Source: Candidatus Saccharimonas aalborgensis
GTDB taxonomy: Bacteria > Patescibacteriota > Saccharimonadia > Saccharimonadales > Saccharimonadaceae
Length of the DNA: 64,000 bases
Assembly: GCA_049288955.1 (NCBI GenBank)
Contig: JBAQIS010000021.1
Location: 22,364 to 86,363 of the forward strand
Reading direction: 5' to 3'
Shown: positions 32,793 through 52,923 of the stretch, piece by piece
Layout of the letters: every line of letters starts with the position of its first letter
Numbering within the stretch: position 1 is the first letter of the stretch
Translations under genes and position numbers: made by a program
Notes under the pieces: model-generated
Database searches by the model: none
Told to the model about the DNA's origin: nothing
What the model saw: only the letters and a program-made list of their open reading frames with translations

Positions 32793-32909
32793 GTGAGTGG
32801 TCAATCCTTTCAGAAGTAAGATCAAATCAGTGATTGGTTAGTGAGCAATTATGACGAGATCCTACGTATTAGCTTTGATATTTTTCGACCATATTGTTAA
32901 GTGACGACA

Positions 32910-33033
32910 ACCTAAGTCTCATTAATTCTCCACTCCAGACAACCGGCCCGCCGCTCACTGATTAGCCTTCGCCTTGGCGGGCCTTGGCCCATCAGGGCCA
33001 ACTGTCTGTCGGAGGAACTGTTGAGATTTAGGT
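32910..33033 (+). repeat. Structured GC-rich repeat, copy A (about 124 nt)
   Basis: Outer stem ACCTAAGTCTCA/TGAGATTTAGGT; core CCACTCCAGACAACCGGCCCGCC...GGCGGGCCTTGGCCCATCAGGGCCAACTGTCTGTCGGAGG shared with copies B and C. Confidence 0.85.
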
Positions 33034-33202
33034 ACGACATTCAGGTAATGAACTAAAAAAGCTTTGGTTCATTACCAAAGACTTGCGGAAAAAGATGAAT
33101 TTCCCCTCGGTAGCGAATTAAGCAATTTCTTGCAGCTACTGTCTTTAGGTAATGTCTAGTCGCTAGTATAGCATGGACGGAGCTACTTTTCAAGTTGCAA
33201 AA

Positions 33203-33329
33203 ACCCGAGTCTCATCCCCTCCCCACTCCAGACAACCGGCCCGCCGCTAACTGAATCAGCCTTCGCTCTTGGCGGGCCTTGGCCCATCAGGGCCAACTGT
33301 CTGTCGGAGGAGGGGTTTGAGGCTTGGGT
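33203..33329 (+). repeat. Structured GC-rich repeat, copy B (about 127 nt)
   Basis: Outer stem ACCCGAGTCTCA/TGAGGCTTGGGT (two G-U pairs on the plus strand only); core 96% identical to copy C. Confidence 0.85.
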
Positions 33330-33356
33330 GTAATATGTGCTATACTACACTTAGAA

Positions 33357-35650: not shown

Positions 35651-36454
35651 TTATCTTATTGTAACATGTGTTTTAAGGACGACGATCGAGTGGACTGGTG
35701 ATGGGGTGTGGAACTTCAGCTCCCTCACGAATGCGCTTGATAATGGTGCTCGTTTTCCAATTATCACCAGTTTGGGGATGAGAACGTAGGGGTCGACCCC
35801 ATCGGCGATTAGTACTGGGTTGAGACCGCGATCTCGCGCTTCTTGGACAACTGCGGGTTGTTCGTCAAAGACGACCAGTGTATCGAGCAGCCCGTGACGT
35901 GCCAAAAACTCTGCGAGGATAAGGGATGATTCGAGGCAGGTTTCTTGATGAACCGGATCACCCTCAACGGTGACTAGGTCGATTACGGGAAGAAGTCCAA
36001 TGGTGCTATCAAAGCTATAGCCTGCGACTCGGTTGGCGCGTGTTTCCCATGGATAAATCGGACGCGGTACGCCTCCTTTTGCTTCGACACCACCCTTTTT
36101 TGCTGCAACTTTGTAGTCAGCGTCGACGGTGACGGCAAGTGAAAGTGCGGGTTGCGCAACAGCAGCCTGTAAACTTTCGACCGTGACAGGGTGATTGTGC
36201 GCCTGCAAAAAAGCCCGTGCACCGAGCAAGCGGACGTGCCGTAAATACCATTCATGATTATCGTGCGGGACATCAAAAGCACCATCAACCAGCGTAATAT
36301 GGCTATGACGTATCTCGCGAAGGTGTCGAAATGCGGCAAGCACTACTGCATCCGTATACTCGGGTTCTGGGTAGAGCAGACGCTCGGGCGCACGCAGGGT
36401 CGGCCCAAATACTTCAAATACATCTGGATTTCTATCACCTAACTCACGCGCCAT
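35651..36454 (-). CDS. Cytidylyl/adenylyltransferase-like protein (HldC/TagD-like fold), paralog 1
   Basis: 267 aa; VDGAFDVPHDNHEWYL (compare GxFDxxHxGH), VTVDADYKVAAKKG...RPIYPWETRANRVAGY. Confidence 0.6.
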   Translation of the reverse strand: MARELGDRNPDVFEVFGPTLRAPERLLYPEPEYTDAVVLAAFRHLREIRHSHITLVDGAFDVPHDNHEWYLRHVRLLGARAFLQAHNHPVTVESLQAAVAQPALSLAVTVDADYKVAAKKGGVEAKGGVPRPIYPWETRANRVAGYSFDSTIGLLPVIDLVTVEGDPVHQETCLESSLILAEFLARHGLLDTLVVFDEQPAVVQEARDRGLNPVLIADGVDPYVLIPKLVIIGKRAPLSSAFVRELKFHTPSPVHSIVVLKTHVTIR

Positions 36455-36509
36455 AGCAGTCTCCTCCAGTCACTCTATCGATAGTGCTATGGTACAGATG
36501 ATTTATCGT

Positions 36510-37292
36510 TTAATCAAGGGGGCTGGTGATGGGATGTGGTACGGGTTCACCTTGAGCACGACGAATAAGATCACTACTGCTCCAGGGCCTATCGGTTTGT
36601 GGATTGAGCCCAAATGGTATGTCGTCAGGGTTGATAACGATGGGGTTGAGTCCTGCTTCGGTGGCTTGGGTCAGAGCGGCCGAATGTTCTTTATTGATGA
36701 CAACATTGTCGAGGAGGTCTCTCTCAGCGAGAAATATAGCGAGAGACACAAATGACTCGAGCGCAGTGCCTCGGTGAACGTGATCGCCCTCTACCGTTAC
36801 TAGGTCAGTGGTGGGTACGTAAAGCCCCGATGCTGGCGCAGTTTCAAACGTATAGCCAGCTACCCGATCCGCACGTGCCTGCCATGGATAAATGGGGCGC
36901 TGAACGCCTCCTTTTTCGGCAAATCCACTCTTTACATGGGCGACTTTATGATCTGCGTCGACGGTGATTGCAGTGATAACGTCAGGAGAAATAAGCATAT
37001 TGCGCACCATATCGGGAGTTGGCTCAATGCCTCGTGCTATGAGTGATGCAGCAGCGCCAAGGGCTCGCGTATGGCGAACCATCCATTCGTGGCCGTCGTG
37101 TGGTACGTCAAAAGCTCCATCCGCAAGAGTGATATTGGTATGATCACTGCGTCGACGGAGTGAAGAAAAAACAGCCGTAACAGCTTGGTCGGTCTCTTCT
37201 GGTCTTGGATAGAGTAAACGATCTGGCGAACGAAGGGTTGCGCCAAATACCTGAAATACGTCCCGCTTGTCAGGGGTACCACCAAATGCCAT
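36510..37292 (-). CDS. Cytidylyl/adenylyltransferase-like protein, paralog 2
   Basis: 260 aa; ADGAFDVPHDGHEWMV, ITVDADHKVAHVKSG...RPIYPWQARADRVAGY, C-terminal RPWSSSDLIRRA (compare RxxGxSTTxIIxRI). Confidence 0.6.
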   Translation of the reverse strand: MAFGGTPDKRDVFQVFGATLRSPDRLLYPRPEETDQAVTAVFSSLRRRSDHTNITLADGAFDVPHDGHEWMVRHTRALGAAASLIARGIEPTPDMVRNMLISPDVITAITVDADHKVAHVKSGFAEKGGVQRPIYPWQARADRVAGYTFETAPASGLYVPTTDLVTVEGDHVHRGTALESFVSLAIFLAERDLLDNVVINKEHSAALTQATEAGLNPIVINPDDIPFGLNPQTDRPWSSSDLIRRAQGEPVPHPITSPLD

Positions 37293-43521: not shown

Positions 43522-43571
43522 GATAATAACGTCTACAGTCCTAGATGCACCTCTCACGAAAGGAAAGCTCG

Positions 43572-44285
43572 ATGAACATCTCTCGTCGCAAGATCAACTG
43601 GGCAATCATCGCGGGCCTCTTGGTGGCTGCCATCGCGATCAGTGCGCTTTGGGTGTTGATGGATCCCCTGCGTGGGGCCAACACCCAGAAGCCGCCGCTC
43701 GGCTCGGCCACGGTCACGCAGACCATGGCTCCGACCACCGGGGTTTCCACTCCGGTGGCGTCCTCGACCGCCCCAGTGAGTACCTCGCCGACCACCGTCA
43801 CCGCGACGCCGTCGCGGACGACGGTTGCTCCGACGACGTCCGCCCCCTCGCGGACAACGCCGGTCAACACCACTCCGGTGGTGTCGCGGGTATTCAACCG
43901 CTACACCATCCAGTTGCCGCCCGGCACGACGATCGTCGGCAGCCAGACCGGCAGGTTCGGCGAGGTGCGAACCACCTACAAGACCTCGGCCGGCGAGCAG
44001 CTCATGACCATCGCTTTCTCGCCAGATTTCAGGTGGCGGGACTACAGCGAGGAGCTGACGGCCAAGTGCCCAAGTGCCACCGAGGGCCCGCAGACCCCCA
44101 TCAACTGGGGCGGTTCCTATAGGGGCGGCTACACCGCCTGGGACCGCTCCAAGTGTGACCAGGGCCCACTGGTGACGTTCACCACCTTCTCGGAGGTGGA
44201 GAACGTGGCGGTGGTGCAGTTCAGGGTGGCCAAGCCGGCCCCCTGGCTGGTCAAGGCCATCGAGAAGGCGAACTGGAAGGAGTAA
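43572..44285 (+). CDS. Membrane-anchored/secreted protein with Thr/Pro/Ser-rich linker (about 70% GC)
   Basis: 237 aa from MNISRRKINWAIIAGLLVAAIAISALWVL; AAGGAAAG RBS; low-complexity TTVTATPSRTTVAPTTSAPSRTTPVNTTP; globular Cys-containing C-terminus. Confidence 0.65.
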   Translation: MNISRRKINWAIIAGLLVAAIAISALWVLMDPLRGANTQKPPLGSATVTQTMAPTTGVSTPVASSTAPVSTSPTTVTATPSRTTVAPTTSAPSRTTPVNTTPVVSRVFNRYTIQLPPGTTIVGSQTGRFGEVRTTYKTSAGEQLMTIAFSPDFRWRDYSEELTAKCPSATEGPQTPINWGGSYRGGYTAWDRSKCDQGPLVTFTTFSEVENVAVVQFRVAKPAPWLVKAIEKANWKE

Positions 44286-44323
44286 CGTCCTTTCCAGGAC
44301 GCGCTTCATCACTTCCTTCCACT

Positions 44324-44353
44324 CACCCCTCGTCCGTGTACTCGGACGAGGGG
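44324..44353. terminator. 12-bp GC-rich hairpin between convergent high-GC genes
   Basis: ACCCCTCGTCCG-tgtact-CGGACGAGGGGT. Confidence 0.55.
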
Positions 44354-44463
44354 TCTTCTCGTATGATGGGTATATAAAGTGACTATAACGAAGAAACCCG
44401 TCGAGAGACGGAGCGAGCCGATGGTTCGGCGGGCTTCTTCGTCCTTCGACGGGTTGTAGGGAG

Positions 44464-44613
44464 TCAGCGGCGGCGGTTGCTCCAGCGGCGATGCCACTGG
44501 GTGTTTACAAACCGTCTGACCCATTTCGGGCCGTACTCCATCGCGATGAAAGCAATGAAGACGATCAGAAATGTCATCACGATCGCTCCAGCGATGATGT
44601 GCAGCCAACTCAT
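44464..44613 (-). CDS. 49-aa membrane protein (not in the ORF track)
   Basis: My translation: MSWLHIIAGAIVMTFLIVFIAFIAMEYGPKWVRRFVNTQWHRRWSNRRR; ATGA overlap with the upstream gene stop. Confidence 0.5.
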   Translation of the reverse strand: MSWLHIIAGAIVMTFLIVFIAFIAMEYGPKWVRRFVNTQWHRRWSNRRR

Positions 44614-44801
44614 GGTGTCGTCTTGTCCTCAAGGCCTTCGGCGCTCCCCCACGTTTTCTCAAGCAGGCGGAGGTTACGCTCGATGGCGCCCTCCCTCTGC
44701 TTCGAGAAGCGGGAGTACCGCCGACGCAACAGGATGGCGGTGCCAGCCGCGACGGCGGCACCGGTGCTGACACCGATGATGACCTTGGTACGCTTGCTCA
44801 T
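44610..44801 (-). CDS. 63-aa membrane-anchored protein (YtxH-like N-terminus)
   Basis: MSKRTKVIIGVSTGAAVAAGTAILL then a charged helix; high GC. Confidence 0.5.
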   Translation of the reverse strand: MSKRTKVIIGVSTGAAVAAGTAILLRRRYSRFSKQREGAIERNLRLLEKTWGSAEGLEDKTTP

Positions 44802-44934
44802 GAGGTGTTCCTCATCTCTCTAATCGGGAGAACTGACAAAATATATTGTAGAATAAAAAAGTTATATTGTAAATACTTATACGAAAAACGCCTCCGAAAC
44901 CTATCGGGGGCTTTTTCGTCCTCACTATCTCGAG

Positions 44935-45171
44935 CTAGCACACGCTGAGAAGGGTCCAACCACTTCCCTGAGCTCGCAGACAAAAGTTTTGGCTGCCGTC
45001 ACTCATGGTGACTGTACTCCAGATACGTTCACCGCGACGGATAGTGGTGCGGATACCCCTATCGATAAAACAATAGGTGCGACCTCGCCATTCCATGCGT
45101 GTGGGGTAGGTGCTCATACCGGGCCCAAACCCTACTGCGGTGATAGAAACAGGACTGTTAATTGTTCTCAT
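44935..45171 (-). CDS. Small hypothetical protein (78 aa)
   Basis: AGGAGAG RBS 6 nt upstream; contains PTRMEWRGRTYCF...ERIWSTV...GSGWTLL; terminator-like hairpin at 44889-44920. Confidence 0.45.
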   Translation of the reverse strand: MRTINSPVSITAVGFGPGMSTYPTRMEWRGRTYCFIDRGIRTTIRRGERIWSTVTMSDGSQNFCLRAQGSGWTLLSVC

Positions 45172-45189
45172 AGCATACTCTCCTATGGA

Positions 45190-45366
45190 TTAGTGTTTGA
45201 CAAGTGGTGGAGTATGAACGACAAGGCCTTTTGTCCGCCCCACTGTGTAGCGGTACAATCGTCTGCCTGAAGTCGTGAGTTTGTGGAGGTTCACCCGCGT
45301 GGATGAGCCTGGTGCGATAGACGGTTTGGCTGTGGAAACGCTCTCACCGAGAACGAGTACAACCAT
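45190..45366 (-). CDS. Small hypothetical protein (58 aa, not in the ORF track)
   Basis: My translation: MVVLVLGESVSTAKPSIAPGSSTRVNLHKLTTSGRRLYRYTVGRTKGLVVHTPPLVKH; 18 nt upstream of the next ORF; weak RBS. Confidence 0.3.
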   Translation of the reverse strand: MVVLVLGESVSTAKPSIAPGSSTRVNLHKLTTSGRRLYRYTVGRTKGLVVHTPPLVKH

Positions 45367-46391: not shown

Positions 46392-48185
46392 CTAGTAAAC
46401 ATACTGATTATTTAAAGGGTGCAGAAAGATCGCGTCTCTTGGCTGCCGCACTGTGCCCGGCGTGGTGCTACCAATACCAATTTGTCCATCACTATTTGCA
46501 CCCCAACAATAGCTAATATTGTTCGCGATAGCGCATATGCGCATCGCGCCACCTGTGAGGCCGTATATCCTATTGTTTGCGAACACACTGGGAGTATAGG
46601 TATCAGTGACAGCGACCGGCACAGCCGTACGAACCGATGCCCCATCGCCACGCGTGGATGACGCGCCCCAGCAGTAGGCTCGACTGGTGTTTATGTCGCC
46701 GCCCGTATAGGCGGTGACGCAACCACCTCCCGCCGACGTACCAAGCTCCACGGGCGTTCTGCCCGACAGCACACCCGATGTTGATACTGCTTGGGGTGCG
46801 ATGTATAACCACGCAGGAAACGTATTGCCGCTGAGGCCCATAGTGCCGTTGTTTCCCAGGCCGCCGTCTAGATTGCTGCCCCAGCAGTAGGCGCGGGCAT
46901 CGGCAGTGGTTGTCGTGTAGGCGATCGCACAAGTGTGTGCGTTGCCTTGTGCAATACCTCCGTTCACCCCGGGTTCATAGTAAGCATTGCCATCGCCAGT
47001 GATGGCAATGACTTTTTTACCCGACAACGCCCCTCCGGTGTAGACAGCAGTGGGGACGATAGCCTTGTTGGTGGCATTAGTTCCTGTAGGCATCACATTT
47101 ATTCCGAGCTCACCGTCTTGGTTGCTCCCCCAGCAGTAGGCCACGAATGAGGCGATGGCACAGATGTGGTTGTTGAAAGCTCCTGAGGGTGATACGTACG
47201 AGATAGTTTTGTTGGCAAGGGCACCATAACCTCCCGAGGGGCCGCCGATGAGCACAGGAGTTAGCACCGAAACATTTGAGGATTTATTATTGCCCACCTG
47301 ACCGCTAGAGTTGCTCCCCCAACAATAGAGCTCTCCGCCGTCAGTGAGCGCACACGCTGCGTTGCCGGTTACCCCTAATTTAAGGACATTTTTGCCCACT
47401 AGACCACCAACTTTTACTGGCACTGAACTATCGGTTGTTGAATTGTTACCCAGCTGACCCTGGTTGTTCCTTCCCCAGCAGTATGCCTCGCCAGTTTCAA
47501 TAACAACACAGTTGAAATAGCCTCCCGATGCCATCTGTGTGACTTTGTAGGCGCCAATGCCGCTTGGATACGGATCGCGCTTCACTTTGACAGGAATTAG
47601 GCTGTCAGTTGTTGTGCCATTGCCAAGCTGGCCATACTGGTTCCTCCCCCAGCAATATGTACTGTAGGAGAGCACGCCGCAGGTGCGCAGCGTGCCACTC
47701 GTAGACTGTTGGCTCGAAAGCGTTGGATCCCAGGTGAGAGTTTTTTTGACAAGGCTCGTATATGTCTTTGTGCTCCCGCCCGTGCCAACGGTTGCAGTTC
47801 CGGTTGCAGATATTTGCACACTGTTACCAAGGCTGGCATCGAGGTCACCTACGCTATATGTGGTGGTGAGGCCTGTCCGTGTGTACACAGACGATGGATA
47901 GCCTCCGATCGTTGCCCCGCTACAGTCAGTTTGTGGTGTTAGGTTGGGTTTGCTTGCGGCTGGGCCCCATGTTTGCACATGCCCAGATGCTTCGAGGCAA
48001 CTAGCGGCGTACGACGTACCCGCTTCAGCGGCTTGCTCAGCGAGCCGCATATAGTATCGGCTCTGAGTGATCGTGAGAAGAGTTGAGCTGTTTTGTAGCA
48101 ATGATAACAAAATTGTGAGTACGACAATCGACAACACAAGCATAGCTGGCAGAGAAAAGCCCTCCTGAGATCGTACAGTCCTCAT
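46392..48185 (-). CDS. PilX-like pseudopilin N-terminus fused to an RCC1-repeat beta-propeller
   Basis: 597 aa; N-terminal EGFSLPAMLVLSIVVLTILLSL; at least 7 repeats of YCWG(S/R)N..GQLGN. Confidence 0.8.
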   Translation of the reverse strand: MRTVRSQEGFSLPAMLVLSIVVLTILLSLLQNSSTLLTITQSRYYMRLAEQAAEAGTSYAASCLEASGHVQTWGPAASKPNLTPQTDCSGATIGGYPSSVYTRTGLTTTYSVGDLDASLGNSVQISATGTATVGTGGSTKTYTSLVKKTLTWDPTLSSQQSTSGTLRTCGVLSYSTYCWGRNQYGQLGNGTTTDSLIPVKVKRDPYPSGIGAYKVTQMASGGYFNCVVIETGEAYCWGRNNQGQLGNNSTTDSSVPVKVGGLVGKNVLKLGVTGNAACALTDGGELYCWGSNSSGQVGNNKSSNVSVLTPVLIGGPSGGYGALANKTISYVSPSGAFNNHICAIASFVAYCWGSNQDGELGINVMPTGTNATNKAIVPTAVYTGGALSGKKVIAITGDGNAYYEPGVNGGIAQGNAHTCAIAYTTTTADARAYCWGSNLDGGLGNNGTMGLSGNTFPAWLYIAPQAVSTSGVLSGRTPVELGTSAGGGCVTAYTGGDINTSRAYCWGASSTRGDGASVRTAVPVAVTDTYTPSVFANNRIYGLTGGAMRICAIANNISYCWGANSDGQIGIGSTTPGTVRQPRDAIFLHPLNNQYVY

Positions 48186-49819: not shown

Positions 49820-49918
49820 AGTTATATACCTATTGTATGCGAAAAACCAGAAACAGCAACCATGTAGTTACTATGTTTAGGCAGTGCTCCTCTAATAAGT
49901 GCTTCATTTGGGCGGTGT

Positions 49919-49955
49919 GCGCAGGAAGGGAGTTAAAGTACCTCCCCTCCTGCGC
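49919..49955 (-). terminator. GC-rich hairpin at the boundary of the high-GC module and the pilin operon
   Basis: GCGCAGGAAGGGAG-9 nt-CTCCCCTCCTGCGC (13 of 14 pairs). Confidence 0.45.
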
Positions 49956-49973
49956 GAGAACAACCACGTGGGA

Positions 49974-50393
49974 CTACATCATCTTCAGTCGGTTCTCCAT
50001 GATGCCGATCGCCTTTCGAACCGCCTGGATGTAGTCCAGGTAGGACTGAATGGACAGAGTGACGCTCCGAAGAGCAGCGAGTGCGTCCATCTCGCTGTGA
50101 GCGCGCAGACACAGCTCGGTGCCCATGGAGGCAAGCTGTGCAACGATCTCGTCGACGATAGTGCTTGCGGTCGCTGGGAGGTCACCGACCTTGATGCGGT
50201 AGGCGCAGGCTCGCAGCAGATCGCGTGCTTGTGTCATCACCCCGTGGAGGTTGGTGAAGTAGCCGATGATGGCCGCGTCGCGCTGCGTATCACGCGCCTG
50301 GGCGATGCGGTCGAGCGTCGGTGACATGGTGTCGGCTGCTGCAAGCAGCGTTTCTCGTTGCCTTGCGTTGATCATGACCTGCACGGACATCAT
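49974..50393 (-). CDS. All-helical hypothetical protein (139 aa, high GC)
   Basis: AAGGGG RBS; own promoter; the opposite-strand ORF 49899-50324 looks like a GC shadow. Confidence 0.55.
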   Translation of the reverse strand: MMSVQVMINARQRETLLAAADTMSPTLDRIAQARDTQRDAAIIGYFTNLHGVMTQARDLLRACAYRIKVGDLPATASTIVDEIVAQLASMGTELCLRAHSEMDALAALRSVTLSIQSYLDYIQAVRKAIGIMENRLKMM

Positions 50394-50452
50394 CCCCTTT
50401 CAGGACGAGTCGATGGGTGGTTGCTCCGTCTCAGGAAGAGACGGCTAAAGAT

Positions 50453-50481
50453 ACTATAGAATATAACAAAATGTAAAGCAA
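50453..50481 (-). promoter_or_regulatory. Sigma70-like promoter for the gene at 49974-50393
   Basis: Minus strand TTGCTT-17 nt-TATAGT. Confidence 0.45.
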
Positions 50482-50552
50482 ATATTTCTCATTATGATGC
50501 GTGGTCGGTGCAGTTCCCCACTTGGGAGAACTACACCGACCACATGCTCGTC

Positions 50553-50882
50553 TCAGCCGGCGTCGGGCGCCTTGGCGACCACGAGCGGTTCGTTGACACT
50601 GTCGATGAAGGCAGTGATCCGCGCCCCGATCGTCGACAGGAGCGTCCGGCGCTCCTCGGGCGTGGCGTGCGTTGCCCGCGCAGCAGCATCCATCACCTCA
50701 GTCTCGAGGTCATCGACTGCCTGACGGAGGGTGGTGATGACGTCACGGAAGGCATCCAAGACGTCATCCACATGCTGACGCGCCGTGCCAGCTTGAGCCT
50801 CAGCGGTGCCGAGGTCATTGATTGCAAGGACCACCTCATCTGCTGCTGCCTGCACGGACTTGCGTGAGGGCATGGTTGTCAA
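50553..50882 (-). CDS. All-helical hypothetical protein (109 aa, high GC)
   Basis: TTG start 5 nt after GGGAG; Ala/Asp/Val-rich helical-hairpin-like sequence. Confidence 0.5.
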   Translation of the reverse strand: MTTMPSRKSVQAAADEVVLAINDLGTAEAQAGTARQHVDDVLDAFRDVITTLRQAVDDLETEVMDAAARATHATPEERRTLLSTIGARITAFIDSVNEPLVVAKAPDAG

Positions 50883-50970: not shown

Positions 50971-51047
50971 TGGTCGGGGTGACTGGATTTGAACCGGCGA
51001 CCTCACCGTCCCGAACGGTGCGCGCTACCAAACTGCGCCACACCCCG
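50971..51047 (-). tRNA. tRNA-Pro (anticodon CGG), CCA encoded; T-stem has a C-A mismatch
   Basis: Hand fold: acceptor CGGGGTG/CACCCCG, D-arm GCGC-AGTTTGGTA-GCGC, anticodon arm CACCG-TTCGGGA-CGGTG, T-arm GCCGG-TTCAAAT-CCAGT (one mismatch, one G-U). Confidence 0.8.
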
Positions 51048-51174
51048 ATACCATACCCAGTATACACTGATGGTGCGGGAGGCAATAATACTTAACATTT
51101 TATGACATATATGATATAGTTCGTCCAGCTCTTCTACAATTTATTCCTTCTCTCACGGATTGAGGTGAAATCTC

Positions 51175-52014
51175 ATGAACAAGATGCAGAAGCCAAAGCT
51201 CAGCGGCTTCCGCAAGAAGGCGGCCGAGGGGTTCCTGCTCGGCGCCGTCGTGATCTCCCTCTTTCCGTGGGCGATTACGCGCTGGGTAGTGATTCCAGCT
51301 GTCTGGCTCCTTCTCGTGCTGGAGTTGATCAACGTCTCATCTTGGCACAACAAGCTCTGGGACAGGCTGCCGTGGCGGATGCGGCTCCTGATGGATCGAC
51401 CCCAGTGGCCTGGTGCATCAAGCAGGATCCTGCCGCTGTTTGTCGTCATGACGACGGGGCTGGCGGCGTCGATGCTGTGGCTCTACTCCTCATGGCAGCT
51501 CCTCCTTGTACTGCTGGTCAACGCCGTCTTTACCGATGTGTGGGCCCAGGTGGGTGGCATGTTGGCCAAGAAGCGTGCCATTCGCCAGGGTCGCGCAGCT
51601 CCGAAGCAATTCTCTCCTGACTCGCCCAACAAGACATGGGTAGGTGTGGTGAGTGGTCTTATCGGTGGCGCGCTCAGCGGGTTCGTTGCCGCGTGGGTGC
51701 TGGTGACGTTCTGCGGGCTGGGAATCCCGTGGTTTGTCTACGCACTCATGCTGGGAGGCCCGATCGTGGTGGTCCTGGGCGACCTCTTTGAGAGCCGCCT
51801 CAAGCGCGAGGTAGAAATCAAGGACCTGAGTCGGTTCTTTGGCTCTCACGGTGGGGCCTGTGACCGGCTTGACGGTCTGGCTTCCTACCTCGCGACCGTG
51901 GCTTTGACTATCTACGCGCTGGCGTGCTGGCCGTGGTGGATCTGGCTGCTCGTCGCTGCCTGGGATGCAATCGTCATTCGCGAGCTCATGCGCCCGCGGC
52001 GCCGCACGACCTGA
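51175..52014 (+). CDS. Phosphatidate cytidylyltransferase (CdsA) family membrane protein (about 63% GC)
   Basis: 279 aa; SPDSPNKTWVG (compare SPxKTxEG) and ESRLKREVEIKDLSRFFGSHGGACDRLDGL (compare the CdsA signature); GAGGTGA RBS. Confidence 0.65.
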   Translation: MNKMQKPKLSGFRKKAAEGFLLGAVVISLFPWAITRWVVIPAVWLLLVLELINVSSWHNKLWDRLPWRMRLLMDRPQWPGASSRILPLFVVMTTGLAASMLWLYSSWQLLLVLLVNAVFTDVWAQVGGMLAKKRAIRQGRAAPKQFSPDSPNKTWVGVVSGLIGGALSGFVAAWVLVTFCGLGIPWFVYALMLGGPIVVVLGDLFESRLKREVEIKDLSRFFGSHGGACDRLDGLASYLATVALTIYALACWPWWIWLLVAAWDAIVIRELMRPRRRTT

Positions 52015-52034
52015 GGAGGAAACAAGAAAGAGCA

Positions 52035-52058
52035 ACTCGGGTGTCCCAGCACCCGAGT
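52035..52058 (+). terminator. Hairpin after the CdsA-family gene
   Basis: ACTCGGGTG-tcccag-CACCCGAGT followed by CTTTCTTTATCT. Confidence 0.5.
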
Positions 52059-52071
52059 CTTTCTTTATCTG

Positions 52072-52186
52072 TGCCTCCCCCCTCCCCACTCCAGACAACC
52101 GGCCCGTCGCTAACTACATCAGCCTTCGCTCTTGACGGGCCTTGGCCCATCAGGGCCAACTGTCTGTCGGAGGAGGGGTTGAGGCA
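52072..52186 (+). repeat. Structured GC-rich repeat, copy C (about 115 nt)
   Basis: Core matches copy B with 4 substitutions in 100 nt, two of them a compensatory pair in the 8-bp stem (GCC/GGC to GTC/GAC). Confidence 0.85.
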
Positions 52187-52268
52187 TAGCCTCTATATAA
52201 TTGACAAAACAATTATAAAAGTATACTATATATTATACCTAACCCCGAGTAGAATAAGAGGACTCCTT

Positions 52269-52796
52269 ATGGGACGTTTTGAGGCTCCGAATGGGCACGA
52301 CTTCTGGCTCGTCCAGGAGATCTGCAACAACCCACACAATCCCGCGACGTGGAACTTCATGGACACGCTATCGGTCTCGCCGATGCCTGCCACCGAGTTC
52401 CAGGGTGGCCGACTCGAGCAAGAGCTGGCCAGCCTGCGCGTTGAGCACCCCGGTGAGTTTATCACCATGGGGGCTGTTATCAGCGTTGCTGATGTCAGCC
52501 GGACCGTGTTCCTCGTCTGCCCTATCCGGGCCCTGCATGGGCTCGTGGACGATTTCGAGCAGTGGTTCAGGGATCCGACGGAGGTCATCCACCGGACCAA
52601 GGTCCCGACCCGGTTCGGACACGCGTTCCTCAATAAGCAGCACCTCCATGGTGTCAACGCGGCCGACAGCGGATCGTACAATGGTCGCATCGTCGCCTGG
52701 TGGTCGCTCGAGGACCAGGTGTTCTGGACGCTGGATGCCATGATCGCGCGCCACATCTGTTCGTGGCTGAACGGAGAGGAGTTCACCGAGGGGTAA
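52269..52796 (+). CDS. Hypothetical protein (175 aa, about 60% GC)
   Basis: AAGAGGA RBS 6 nt before the ATG; TTGACA...TATACT promoter-like sequence at 52203-52230; no motif recognised. Confidence 0.55.
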   Translation: MGRFEAPNGHDFWLVQEICNNPHNPATWNFMDTLSVSPMPATEFQGGRLEQELASLRVEHPGEFITMGAVISVADVSRTVFLVCPIRALHGLVDDFEQWFRDPTEVIHRTKVPTRFGHAFLNKQHLHGVNAADSGSYNGRIVAWWSLEDQVFWTLDAMIARHICSWLNGEEFTEG

Positions 52797-52824
52797 GCAA
52801 ACCCCGCACTGCATTCACAAGCTC

Positions 52825-52861
52825 ATGATGAGACCCCGGATGCGCTGCGGGGTCTCATCAT
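52825..52861 (+). terminator. 14-bp stem hairpin after the 175-aa ORF
   Basis: ATGATGAGACCCCG-9 nt-CGGGGTCTCATCAT. Confidence 0.5.
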
Positions 52862-52874
52862 GCCCAATATCAAA

Positions 52875-52910
52875 ACTACCTCTCTGGTATAGAGAGGTAG
52901 TCCTTTTTTT
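52875..52910. terminator. Bidirectional intrinsic terminator (serves rplK on the minus strand)
   Basis: ACTACCTCTCT-ggtat-AGAGAGGTAGT flanked by an A-run and a T-run. Confidence 0.7.
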
Positions 52911-52923
52911 GAAAACGAACTGA

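Follow-up and report, generated by a model that had tools for sequence, protein, structure and literature searches.

A GC-rich hairpin repeat, best read as a new family of MITE-like elements restricted to one Saccharibacteria lineage

Results

A structured repeat at the rplJ locus

Within the 64,000-nt stretch of DNA analysed here (the window), the intergenic region between rplJ (start codon at 32793) and a divergent gene of 321 aa carries two copies, A and B, of a GC-rich repeat, spaced 169 nt apart, and a third copy, C, lies between a tRNA gene and rplK. Copy limits were fixed by curation against other copies of the element, and the features of the locus and of copy C are as follows.

32910–33033, plus strand: copy A, 124 nt; covariance-model score 134 bits; terminal inverted repeats ACCTAAGTCTCA / TGAGATTTAGGT
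33046–33167, minus strand: L10 leader RF00557; Rfam match of 49.7 bits (gathering score 44)
33203–33329, plus strand: copy B, 127 nt; covariance-model score 151 bits; ends ACCCGAGTCTCA / TGAGGCTTGGGT
33317–33346, plus strand: promoter-like site TTGAGG-18-TATACT facing the divergent 321-aa gene; putative in function
52067–52191, plus strand: copy C, 125 nt; covariance-model score 136 bits; core the same as in A and B

Repeat finding, blastn, and HMM and covariance-model searches returned these three copies in the window and no more, which bears out the count given in an earlier note on this DNA. The stretch between A and B is no anonymous spacer: it contains a promoter-like site for rplJ (TTGAAA-17-TATACT) together with the L10 leader RF00557 and its terminator-like hairpin. 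Copy A occupies the rplJ 5′UTR, antisense to rplJ, with the L10-leader terminator on one side and the ribosome-binding site on the other, and copy B is separated by 9 nt from the −35 of the promoter-like site for rplJ, on its upstream side. The TTGAGG −35 hexamer of the site facing the 321-aa gene falls inside the right end of copy B. RF00557 shares the intergenic region of A and B and is a separate, known cis-regulator of which the repeat forms no part; the repeat recurs at 13 other loci unrelated to rplJ.

Minimum-free-energy (MFE) folding assigned A, B and C one common architecture of −61 to −75 kcal/mol (z = −6.4 to −8.1 relative to dinucleotide shuffles, with 0 of 200 shuffles as good). 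From the outside inward, the fold comprises a long outer stem, the helix CCCCTCC/GGAGGGG, and then CAGACA/TGTCTG, which closes a three-way junction; one junction arm is a 9-bp GC helix, GGCCCGCC(G)/(T)GGCGGGCC, with a loop of ~23 nt, and the other is the hairpin GGCCC-ATCA-GGGCC extended by two U-A pairs. The stems quoted from inspection of the letters were all located in the sequence and recovered by folding. A 12-bp outer stem, proposed as common to all three copies, applies to A and B; in C it is 9 bp of different sequence (CTGTGCCTC / GAGGCATAG) with the register shifted by one. Likewise, the contrast drawn between a GC-rich core and AT-rich surroundings is limited to the immediate intergenic flanks, the genome as a whole having a GC content of ~50%.

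Across the family, the element measures 124–128 nt and is bounded by imperfect 12-bp terminal inverted repeats with the consensus ACCYGARYCTCA ... TGAGRYTCRGGT, between which lies the GC-rich core. Two end types occur, ACCCGAGTCTCA/TGAGACTCGGGT and ACCTAAATCTCA/TGAGATTTAGGT, as do hybrids of the two with four mismatches in twelve positions (site S4), and the ends of copy A form a perfect palindrome in comparison contigs L026, L001 and L011.

The earlier note could match the repeat to no RNA family, and an Rfam search of both strands likewise gave no family for it even at E ≤ 10, returning only the neighbouring L10 leader and two chance-level matches. The translated element matched no called protein in a protein database search with an ORF running through it, by which further copies were sought by way of spurious ORF calls. 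Readings as a diversity-generating retroelement (DGR) template or variable repeat, as a retron non-coding RNA or as a tRNA derivative were dropped, there being no adjacent reverse transcriptase, no A-specific variation and no tRNA-like match.

Several further features of the window were recorded alongside the element. Copy C has a terminator-like hairpin on one side and a promoter-like site, TTGACA-17-TACTAT, on the other. The hairpin, ACTCGGGT-GTCCCAGC-ACCCGAGT at 52035–52060, lies immediately 5′ of the copy; its 3′ arm, extended by two bases (ACCCGAGTCT), is identical to the 10 nt that open the left end of copy B, and its 5′ arm to the 8 nt that close a perfect right end. The hairpin could be what is left of two ends joined to each other, or a solo end, or it could hint at the source of the inverted repeats. 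The surrounding ~1.9 kb (51050–52920, from the tRNA gene at 50974–51047 to rplK) hold two ORFs in addition to copy C and are GC-rich (0.59); this segment looks like a lineage-specific insertion, because the tRNA gene directly adjoins rplK in the relative L044. Elsewhere, five direct repeats of ~49 nt at 46848–47664 lie within a 597-aa ORF (46392–48185) and encode RCC1-like repeats (YCWGxNxxGQLG); they are coding and unrelated to the element. Two tandem paralogous genes at 35651–37292 (267 and 260 aa, no Pfam match on record) explain the repeat pair 36009–36137 / 36844–36972, which is 72% identical. The long ORFs at 43554–45270 and 49899–50867 are rich in Arg, Gly and Pro and have the appearance of artefacts, read in a wrong frame or on the wrong strand of GC-rich DNA.

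Occupied and empty alleles reveal an insertion unit

Exact matches to rplL were recovered on short metagenome and MAG contigs from ENA, NCBI and Logan. The region upstream of rplJ was aligned across ten independent assemblies. Copy B was present in all six assemblies that reach its position. Copy A was present in most related assemblies and absent from L006 (GCA_049291315.1). Where copy A is present, the alleles read ...GAATGTCGT / ACCTAAATCTCA...TGAGACTTAGGT / TGTCGTCAC, the slashes marking the element boundaries, and the empty allele of L006 reads ...CGATGTCGTAAC, with a single TGTCGT (ACGACA on the plus strand of the window) at the point where the occupied alleles carry two. A second pair of alleles shows the converse arrangement, the window being empty at a site that is occupied in contig L011. 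The corresponding features are:

32904–32909: left target-site duplication of copy A, ACGACA
33034–33039: right target-site duplication of copy A, ACGACA
44872–44883: empty target site in the window (junction 44877/44878), where L011:1394–1518 carries a 125-nt copy

At the second site, L011 shows a net gain of 128 nt over the window; substitutions close by, together with a TAC/GTA micro-repeat, obscure the duplication there. An empty counterpart of the copy C site was sought in the closest species, whose sequences are too divergent for the comparison.

Flanks were then compared at all sites, with ends set by alignment to the consensus and six bases taken from each side. The flanking 6-mers match at 6/6 positions at copy A, at 5/6 at sites S10 (AGAGTA/AGATTA) and S12 (CAAGTA/TAAGTA), and at 4/6 at three further sites; those of copy B match at 4/6 only (GCAAAA / GTAATA). 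A match of at least 5/6 was thus seen at 3 of the 14 sites, compared to 1.6% of mismatched left/right site pairings. Among flank lengths of 4–9, only 6 bp gave three sites at one mismatch or better, and the mean match fraction also peaked at 6 bp; roughly half of the sites have a decayed or unclear target duplication. What is inserted is a discrete unit that some strains carry and others lack, and its insertion is accompanied by a 6-bp target duplication.

The family is dispersed, intergenic and lineage-restricted

A 23-mer from the core was compared with JGI metagenome contigs and matched 17 stretches. Together, the metagenome scan and the strain contigs yielded 26 full copies at 14 distinct sites, all 14 of them intergenic, and a contig-end fragment at a 15th (L110). 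Furthermore, the short-read contigs L005, L007, L008, L010, L017 and L110 start or stop inside the element, as contigs commonly do at repeats present in many copies; short-read assemblies of these Saccharibacteria are broken up by it.

Relatives of the L11 protein were found solely in MAGs labelled Candidatus Saccharibacteria or Saccharimonadales, the best being 94% identical. The covariance-model scan of related genomes that had been proposed for the repeat was carried out, jointly with the HMM, on the surroundings of rplK in 80 further species of Saccharibacteria (1.25 Mb in all) and found no copy. No copy was found by blastn against phages and plasmids or in a scan of viral contigs, and an exact 25-mer scan of GTDB representative genomes gave 0 matches, the species representative either being without the element or being masked. 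Judged by these searches, the family appears confined to one uncultured Saccharimonadales lineage (Saccharibacteria, TM7, CPR).

Covariation lies in the inverted repeats and both strands fold alike

One explanation of the conserved fold is that the repeat is a multi-copy structured RNA, either a small RNA or a cis-acting one, made from the plus strand, for which the fold is functional and mobility secondary. In its favour are the structure itself, a very stable predicted fold that beats all shuffles, and the covariation seen in the curated alignment, where 92.4% of cells pair and 16 of 43 pairs show double-sided changes; 0 of 500 shuffles reached the observed values, and slid controls were far lower. 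Pairing-preserving substitutions had already been noted from the three window copies, and the covariation is real; as evidence for an RNA it falls short, since it is confined almost wholly to the inverted repeats. Thirteen of the 16 double-changed pairs belong to the outer arms, and the three core helices are 98–99.5% paired and almost invariant. A transposon needs its two ends to be recognised in the same way, so that covariation of the arms would be expected of it, and a signal located mainly in terminal inverted repeats therefore does not discriminate an RNA from a transposon. Two compensatory events do fall in the core: in C and S9 the C-G pair of columns 45/73 is replaced by U-A, and in L023:13866–13988 CAGACA/TGTCTG is replaced by CGAACA/TGTTCG.

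The earlier note had favoured a plus-strand RNA on the basis of G-U pairs. In a family-wide strand test, in which the left arm was aligned to the reverse complement of the right arm and per-site means were summed, arm mismatches comprised 15 that are G-U on the plus strand, 17.75 that are G-U on the minus strand, and 26 transversions, the commonest class, that pair on neither. The G-U excess noted in A and B is not a trait of the family: the argument for a plus-strand RNA fails because G-U-type and A-C-type mismatches are equally common, and the minus strand folds equally to the plus strand, as RNA and as DNA. The copies have no orientation preference relative to genes: over the 14 sites, five lie between convergent genes, three are co-directional in sense, three co-directional in antisense and three between divergent genes. 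Around A, B and C no promoter-like or terminator-like sites suited to an independent transcript of the element were found, and the sole promoter-like site overlapping an element faces outward from the right end of B. None of the marks of an independent small-RNA gene (its own promoter and terminator, a consistent orientation, a strand-specific fold) was therefore seen. These results, together with the presence or absence of copies between strains with a target duplication and the lack of the element at the sampled rplK-region loci of 80 related species, make the structured-RNA explanation decidedly unlikely, and a dedicated RNA gene is less likely than a MITE.

Divergence was partitioned among flanks, core and arms as follows.

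Same site, different strains: flanks 5.4%, core 5.3%, arms 10.3%
Different sites: flanks not applicable, core 6.5%, arms 35.6%

The core has a rate of change no higher than that of the flanks, which are mostly coding, a further point on the side of an RNA function, and cores at different loci are nearly as uniform as those of orthologous copies. Variation in the arms consists mainly of transitions at Y/R positions, as is the expectation for unconstrained GC-rich DNA. The ~23-nt loop exists as two haplotypes, CTG-ATTAGCCTTCGC-CTTGG and CTGAATCAGCCTTCGCTCTTGG, which swap between orthologous copies whose flanks are ~98–100% identical (window A versus A of L001 and L026); window A differs from L001:9180–9307 and L026:564–689 at eight positions, the loop haplotype switch included. 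These differences suggest that copies have converted one another or that short-read assembly has produced chimeras; the comparison sequences are mostly short-read metagenome assemblies, in which repeat interiors may be collapsed or chimeric. The low divergence of the core may reflect either selection, for mobilisation or for the host, or homogenisation by gene conversion.

Search for a transposase or other mobilising enzyme

The window and about 280 kb of contigs from the same lineage yielded neither a cognate transposase nor a full-length parent element with these ends, and no partial HMM matches pointed to a longer element sharing them. The Pfam screen drew on precomputed tables for about 60 kb around window genes, ten unannotated ORFs of the window and ten ORFs of copy-bearing contigs, and the remaining window ORFs were judged by eye; among the Pfam-annotated genes screened there was no transposase, integrase, RAYT, Y1/HUH or TnpB/IscB. 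What the screen did yield was housekeeping genes and one large serine recombinase (L022:10768–12504; Resolvase, Recombinase and Zn_ribbon_recom), ~10 kb from a copy of the element. This recombinase is probably part of an integrated element, and it is unlikely to be the mover of the repeat, because serine recombinase chemistry gives no 6-bp duplications. A link of the repeat to the IS982 family, which has 'AC' ends and 3–9-bp duplications, would be speculative.

The same data bear on the possibility that the repeat is a structure-recognised single-strand DNA element (REP/REPIN-, IS200/IS605-PATE- or attC-like), with an HUH/Y1 transposase (RAYT/TnpA) or an integrase reading the folded core and the arms needed only to pair. 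A conserved core between variable but complementary arms would fit recognition of this kind, stable hairpins are predicted from both DNA strands, many copies lie between convergent genes in the manner of REPs, and the termini of copies A and B bear a loose likeness to RYYYAAC/GTTRRRY. Such systems, however, make no target duplication, and a 6-bp duplication is found here; no Y1/RAYT, TnpB/IscB or integron integrase occurs among the Pfam-annotated genes; the copies are scattered singly and not in cassette arrays; and at about 125 nt the element exceeds a single REP (20–40 nt). The integron-like TTRRRY end that had been pointed out is a fair description of A and B and not of the family, in which it is kept at only 5 of 14 sites and the consensus end is TCAGGT. 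We consider the single-strand explanation as a whole quite improbable. Within it, the attC reading was rejected on the end consensus, the scattered context and the 6-bp duplication, and REP/REPIN-RAYT and IS200/IS605-derived PATE on the presence of inverted terminal repeats and a duplication and the absence of Y1_Tnp among annotated genes of what is an incomplete genome.

Placement of copies relative to host genes

The five copies located between convergent genes fill the whole gap and abut the stop codons on either side. Such placement, along with a core whose divergence among orthologous copies is half that of the arms and the −35-like hexamer offered by copy B, would be in keeping with a domesticated host element (for instance one that terminates transcription in both directions, stabilises mRNA as a hairpin or binds a protein) that is selected locus by locus and immobile. 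Against this, two sites are polymorphic for presence or absence between close strains, no consistent U-tract follows the hairpin, the contexts are mixed (5′UTR, upstream of promoters, 3′ ends), and gene conversion or assembly collapse explains the low core divergence equally well; we regard domestication as very improbable. Effects of single copies on their hosts are plausible: folding predicts that copy A adds a hairpin of −61 kcal/mol to the rplJ–rplL leader, and the right end of copy B may supply a −35-like hexamer to the neighbouring 321-aa gene.

Discussion

Taken together, we favour the interpretation that the repeat is a non-autonomous, MITE-like transposable element, to which we assign a probability of roughly 0.7, and that its copies are best read as a new family of such elements restricted to one Saccharibacteria lineage. 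The element is non-coding, shorter than ~300 bp, bounded by terminal inverted repeats, associated with a target duplication, and present in dispersed, polymorphic copies, as MITEs are. This interpretation is drawn from two pairs of occupied and empty alleles (copy A versus L006, and L011 versus the window), the target duplication, the dispersed intergenic copies, the contig breaks inside the element, the lack of orientation or strand bias, the lack of an Rfam match, and the lineage restriction. Of the three options left by the earlier note, namely a MITE, a small RNA or a recombination site, the first is thus the one sustained, by the 6-bp duplication, the two empty sites and the 14 dispersed intergenic sites, although no cognate transposase was found for it.

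Several observations count against a MITE. The search of the window and about 280 kb of contigs gave neither a cognate transposase nor a same-ended parent, half of the sites are without a recognisable duplication, and the 128-nt gain in L011 misfits a clean 6 bp. Furthermore, the arms are more divergent than the core, the reverse of a textbook MITE, so that constraint on the core or its homogenisation is needed; the comparison assemblies are mostly short-read and prone to collapse or chimerise repeats.

The mechanism that we propose for a MITE-like element would involve a DDE-type transposase, encoded elsewhere in the genome and acting in trans, which would bind two matching ends, make a staggered 6-bp cut in the target and join the element to it; gap repair would then yield the 6-bp duplication. 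After insertion the arms would decay, mostly by transitions, and the core would be kept near-identical, either as sequence needed for mobilisation, by gene conversion between copies, or both. It is conceivable, if unlikely, that the core rather than the inverted repeats is the functional module, such that some protein recognises a folded single strand, of DNA or of RNA, and the element moves or has been exapted by this route, with the arms needed only to pair and duplications still made, or that it is a mobile multi-copy RNA in a reduced CPR genome.

Hairpin-forming MITEs are known from other bacteria, including Correia/NEMIS in Neisseria, ERIC/IRU (127 bp) in enterobacteria and RUP in Streptococcus pneumoniae, and the duplication of Correia and RUP is TA, against 6 bp for the present element. 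MITEAba12 is a further hairpin-folding bacterial MITE, with a 9-bp duplication (PMC6382973). Like these four, the element is about 100–150 bp long and non-coding, has terminal inverted repeats and a target duplication, occurs in many intergenic copies whose presence varies from strain to strain, and could enter UTRs by co-transcription and donate promoter elements. It differs from known hairpin MITEs in a GC-rich three-way-junction interior that is better conserved than the inverted repeats, in having no parent IS found for it, the other defining features being present, and in its host, a reduced-genome CPR bacterium in which the literature searched describes no MITE. With REP, BIME and REPIN sequences (PMC3116915) it shares the character of a GC-rich extragenic palindrome in many copies, often between convergent genes, with stems that conserve structure more than sequence; REP units are 20–40 nt long (REPINs being pairs), make no duplication and have a RAYT gene alongside, none of which was seen for the element. 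Integron attC sites are likewise imperfect palindromes of similar length, and A and B have termini like RYYYAA / TTRRRY; unlike the element, attC sites flank cassettes in arrays near intI without a duplication, and they combine a variable centre with conserved ends, the opposite of the arrangement here, where the consensus end is TCAGGT.

Reduced Saccharibacteria genomes are usually thought poor in mobile DNA, and our literature searches found neither a MITE or REP-type repeat described in Saccharibacteria nor a paper containing the element's sequence. On the MITE reading, the family shows that a non-autonomous element transposes, or did so recently, in a host-dependent Saccharibacteria genome of roughly 1 Mb. 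Since insertions differ between close populations, they offer a ready strain marker. The rplJ leader exists naturally with the ~124-nt hairpin and, in L006, without it, and copy A, with the autoregulatory L10 leader on one side and the start codon of rplJ on the other, constitutes a natural experiment on how much extra structure is tolerated there. Finally, the invariant core flanked by drifting complementary arms is the one feature that may lead to new insight into recognition; if the core is indeed the functional module, the family would combine mobility that depends on structure with the making of target duplications.
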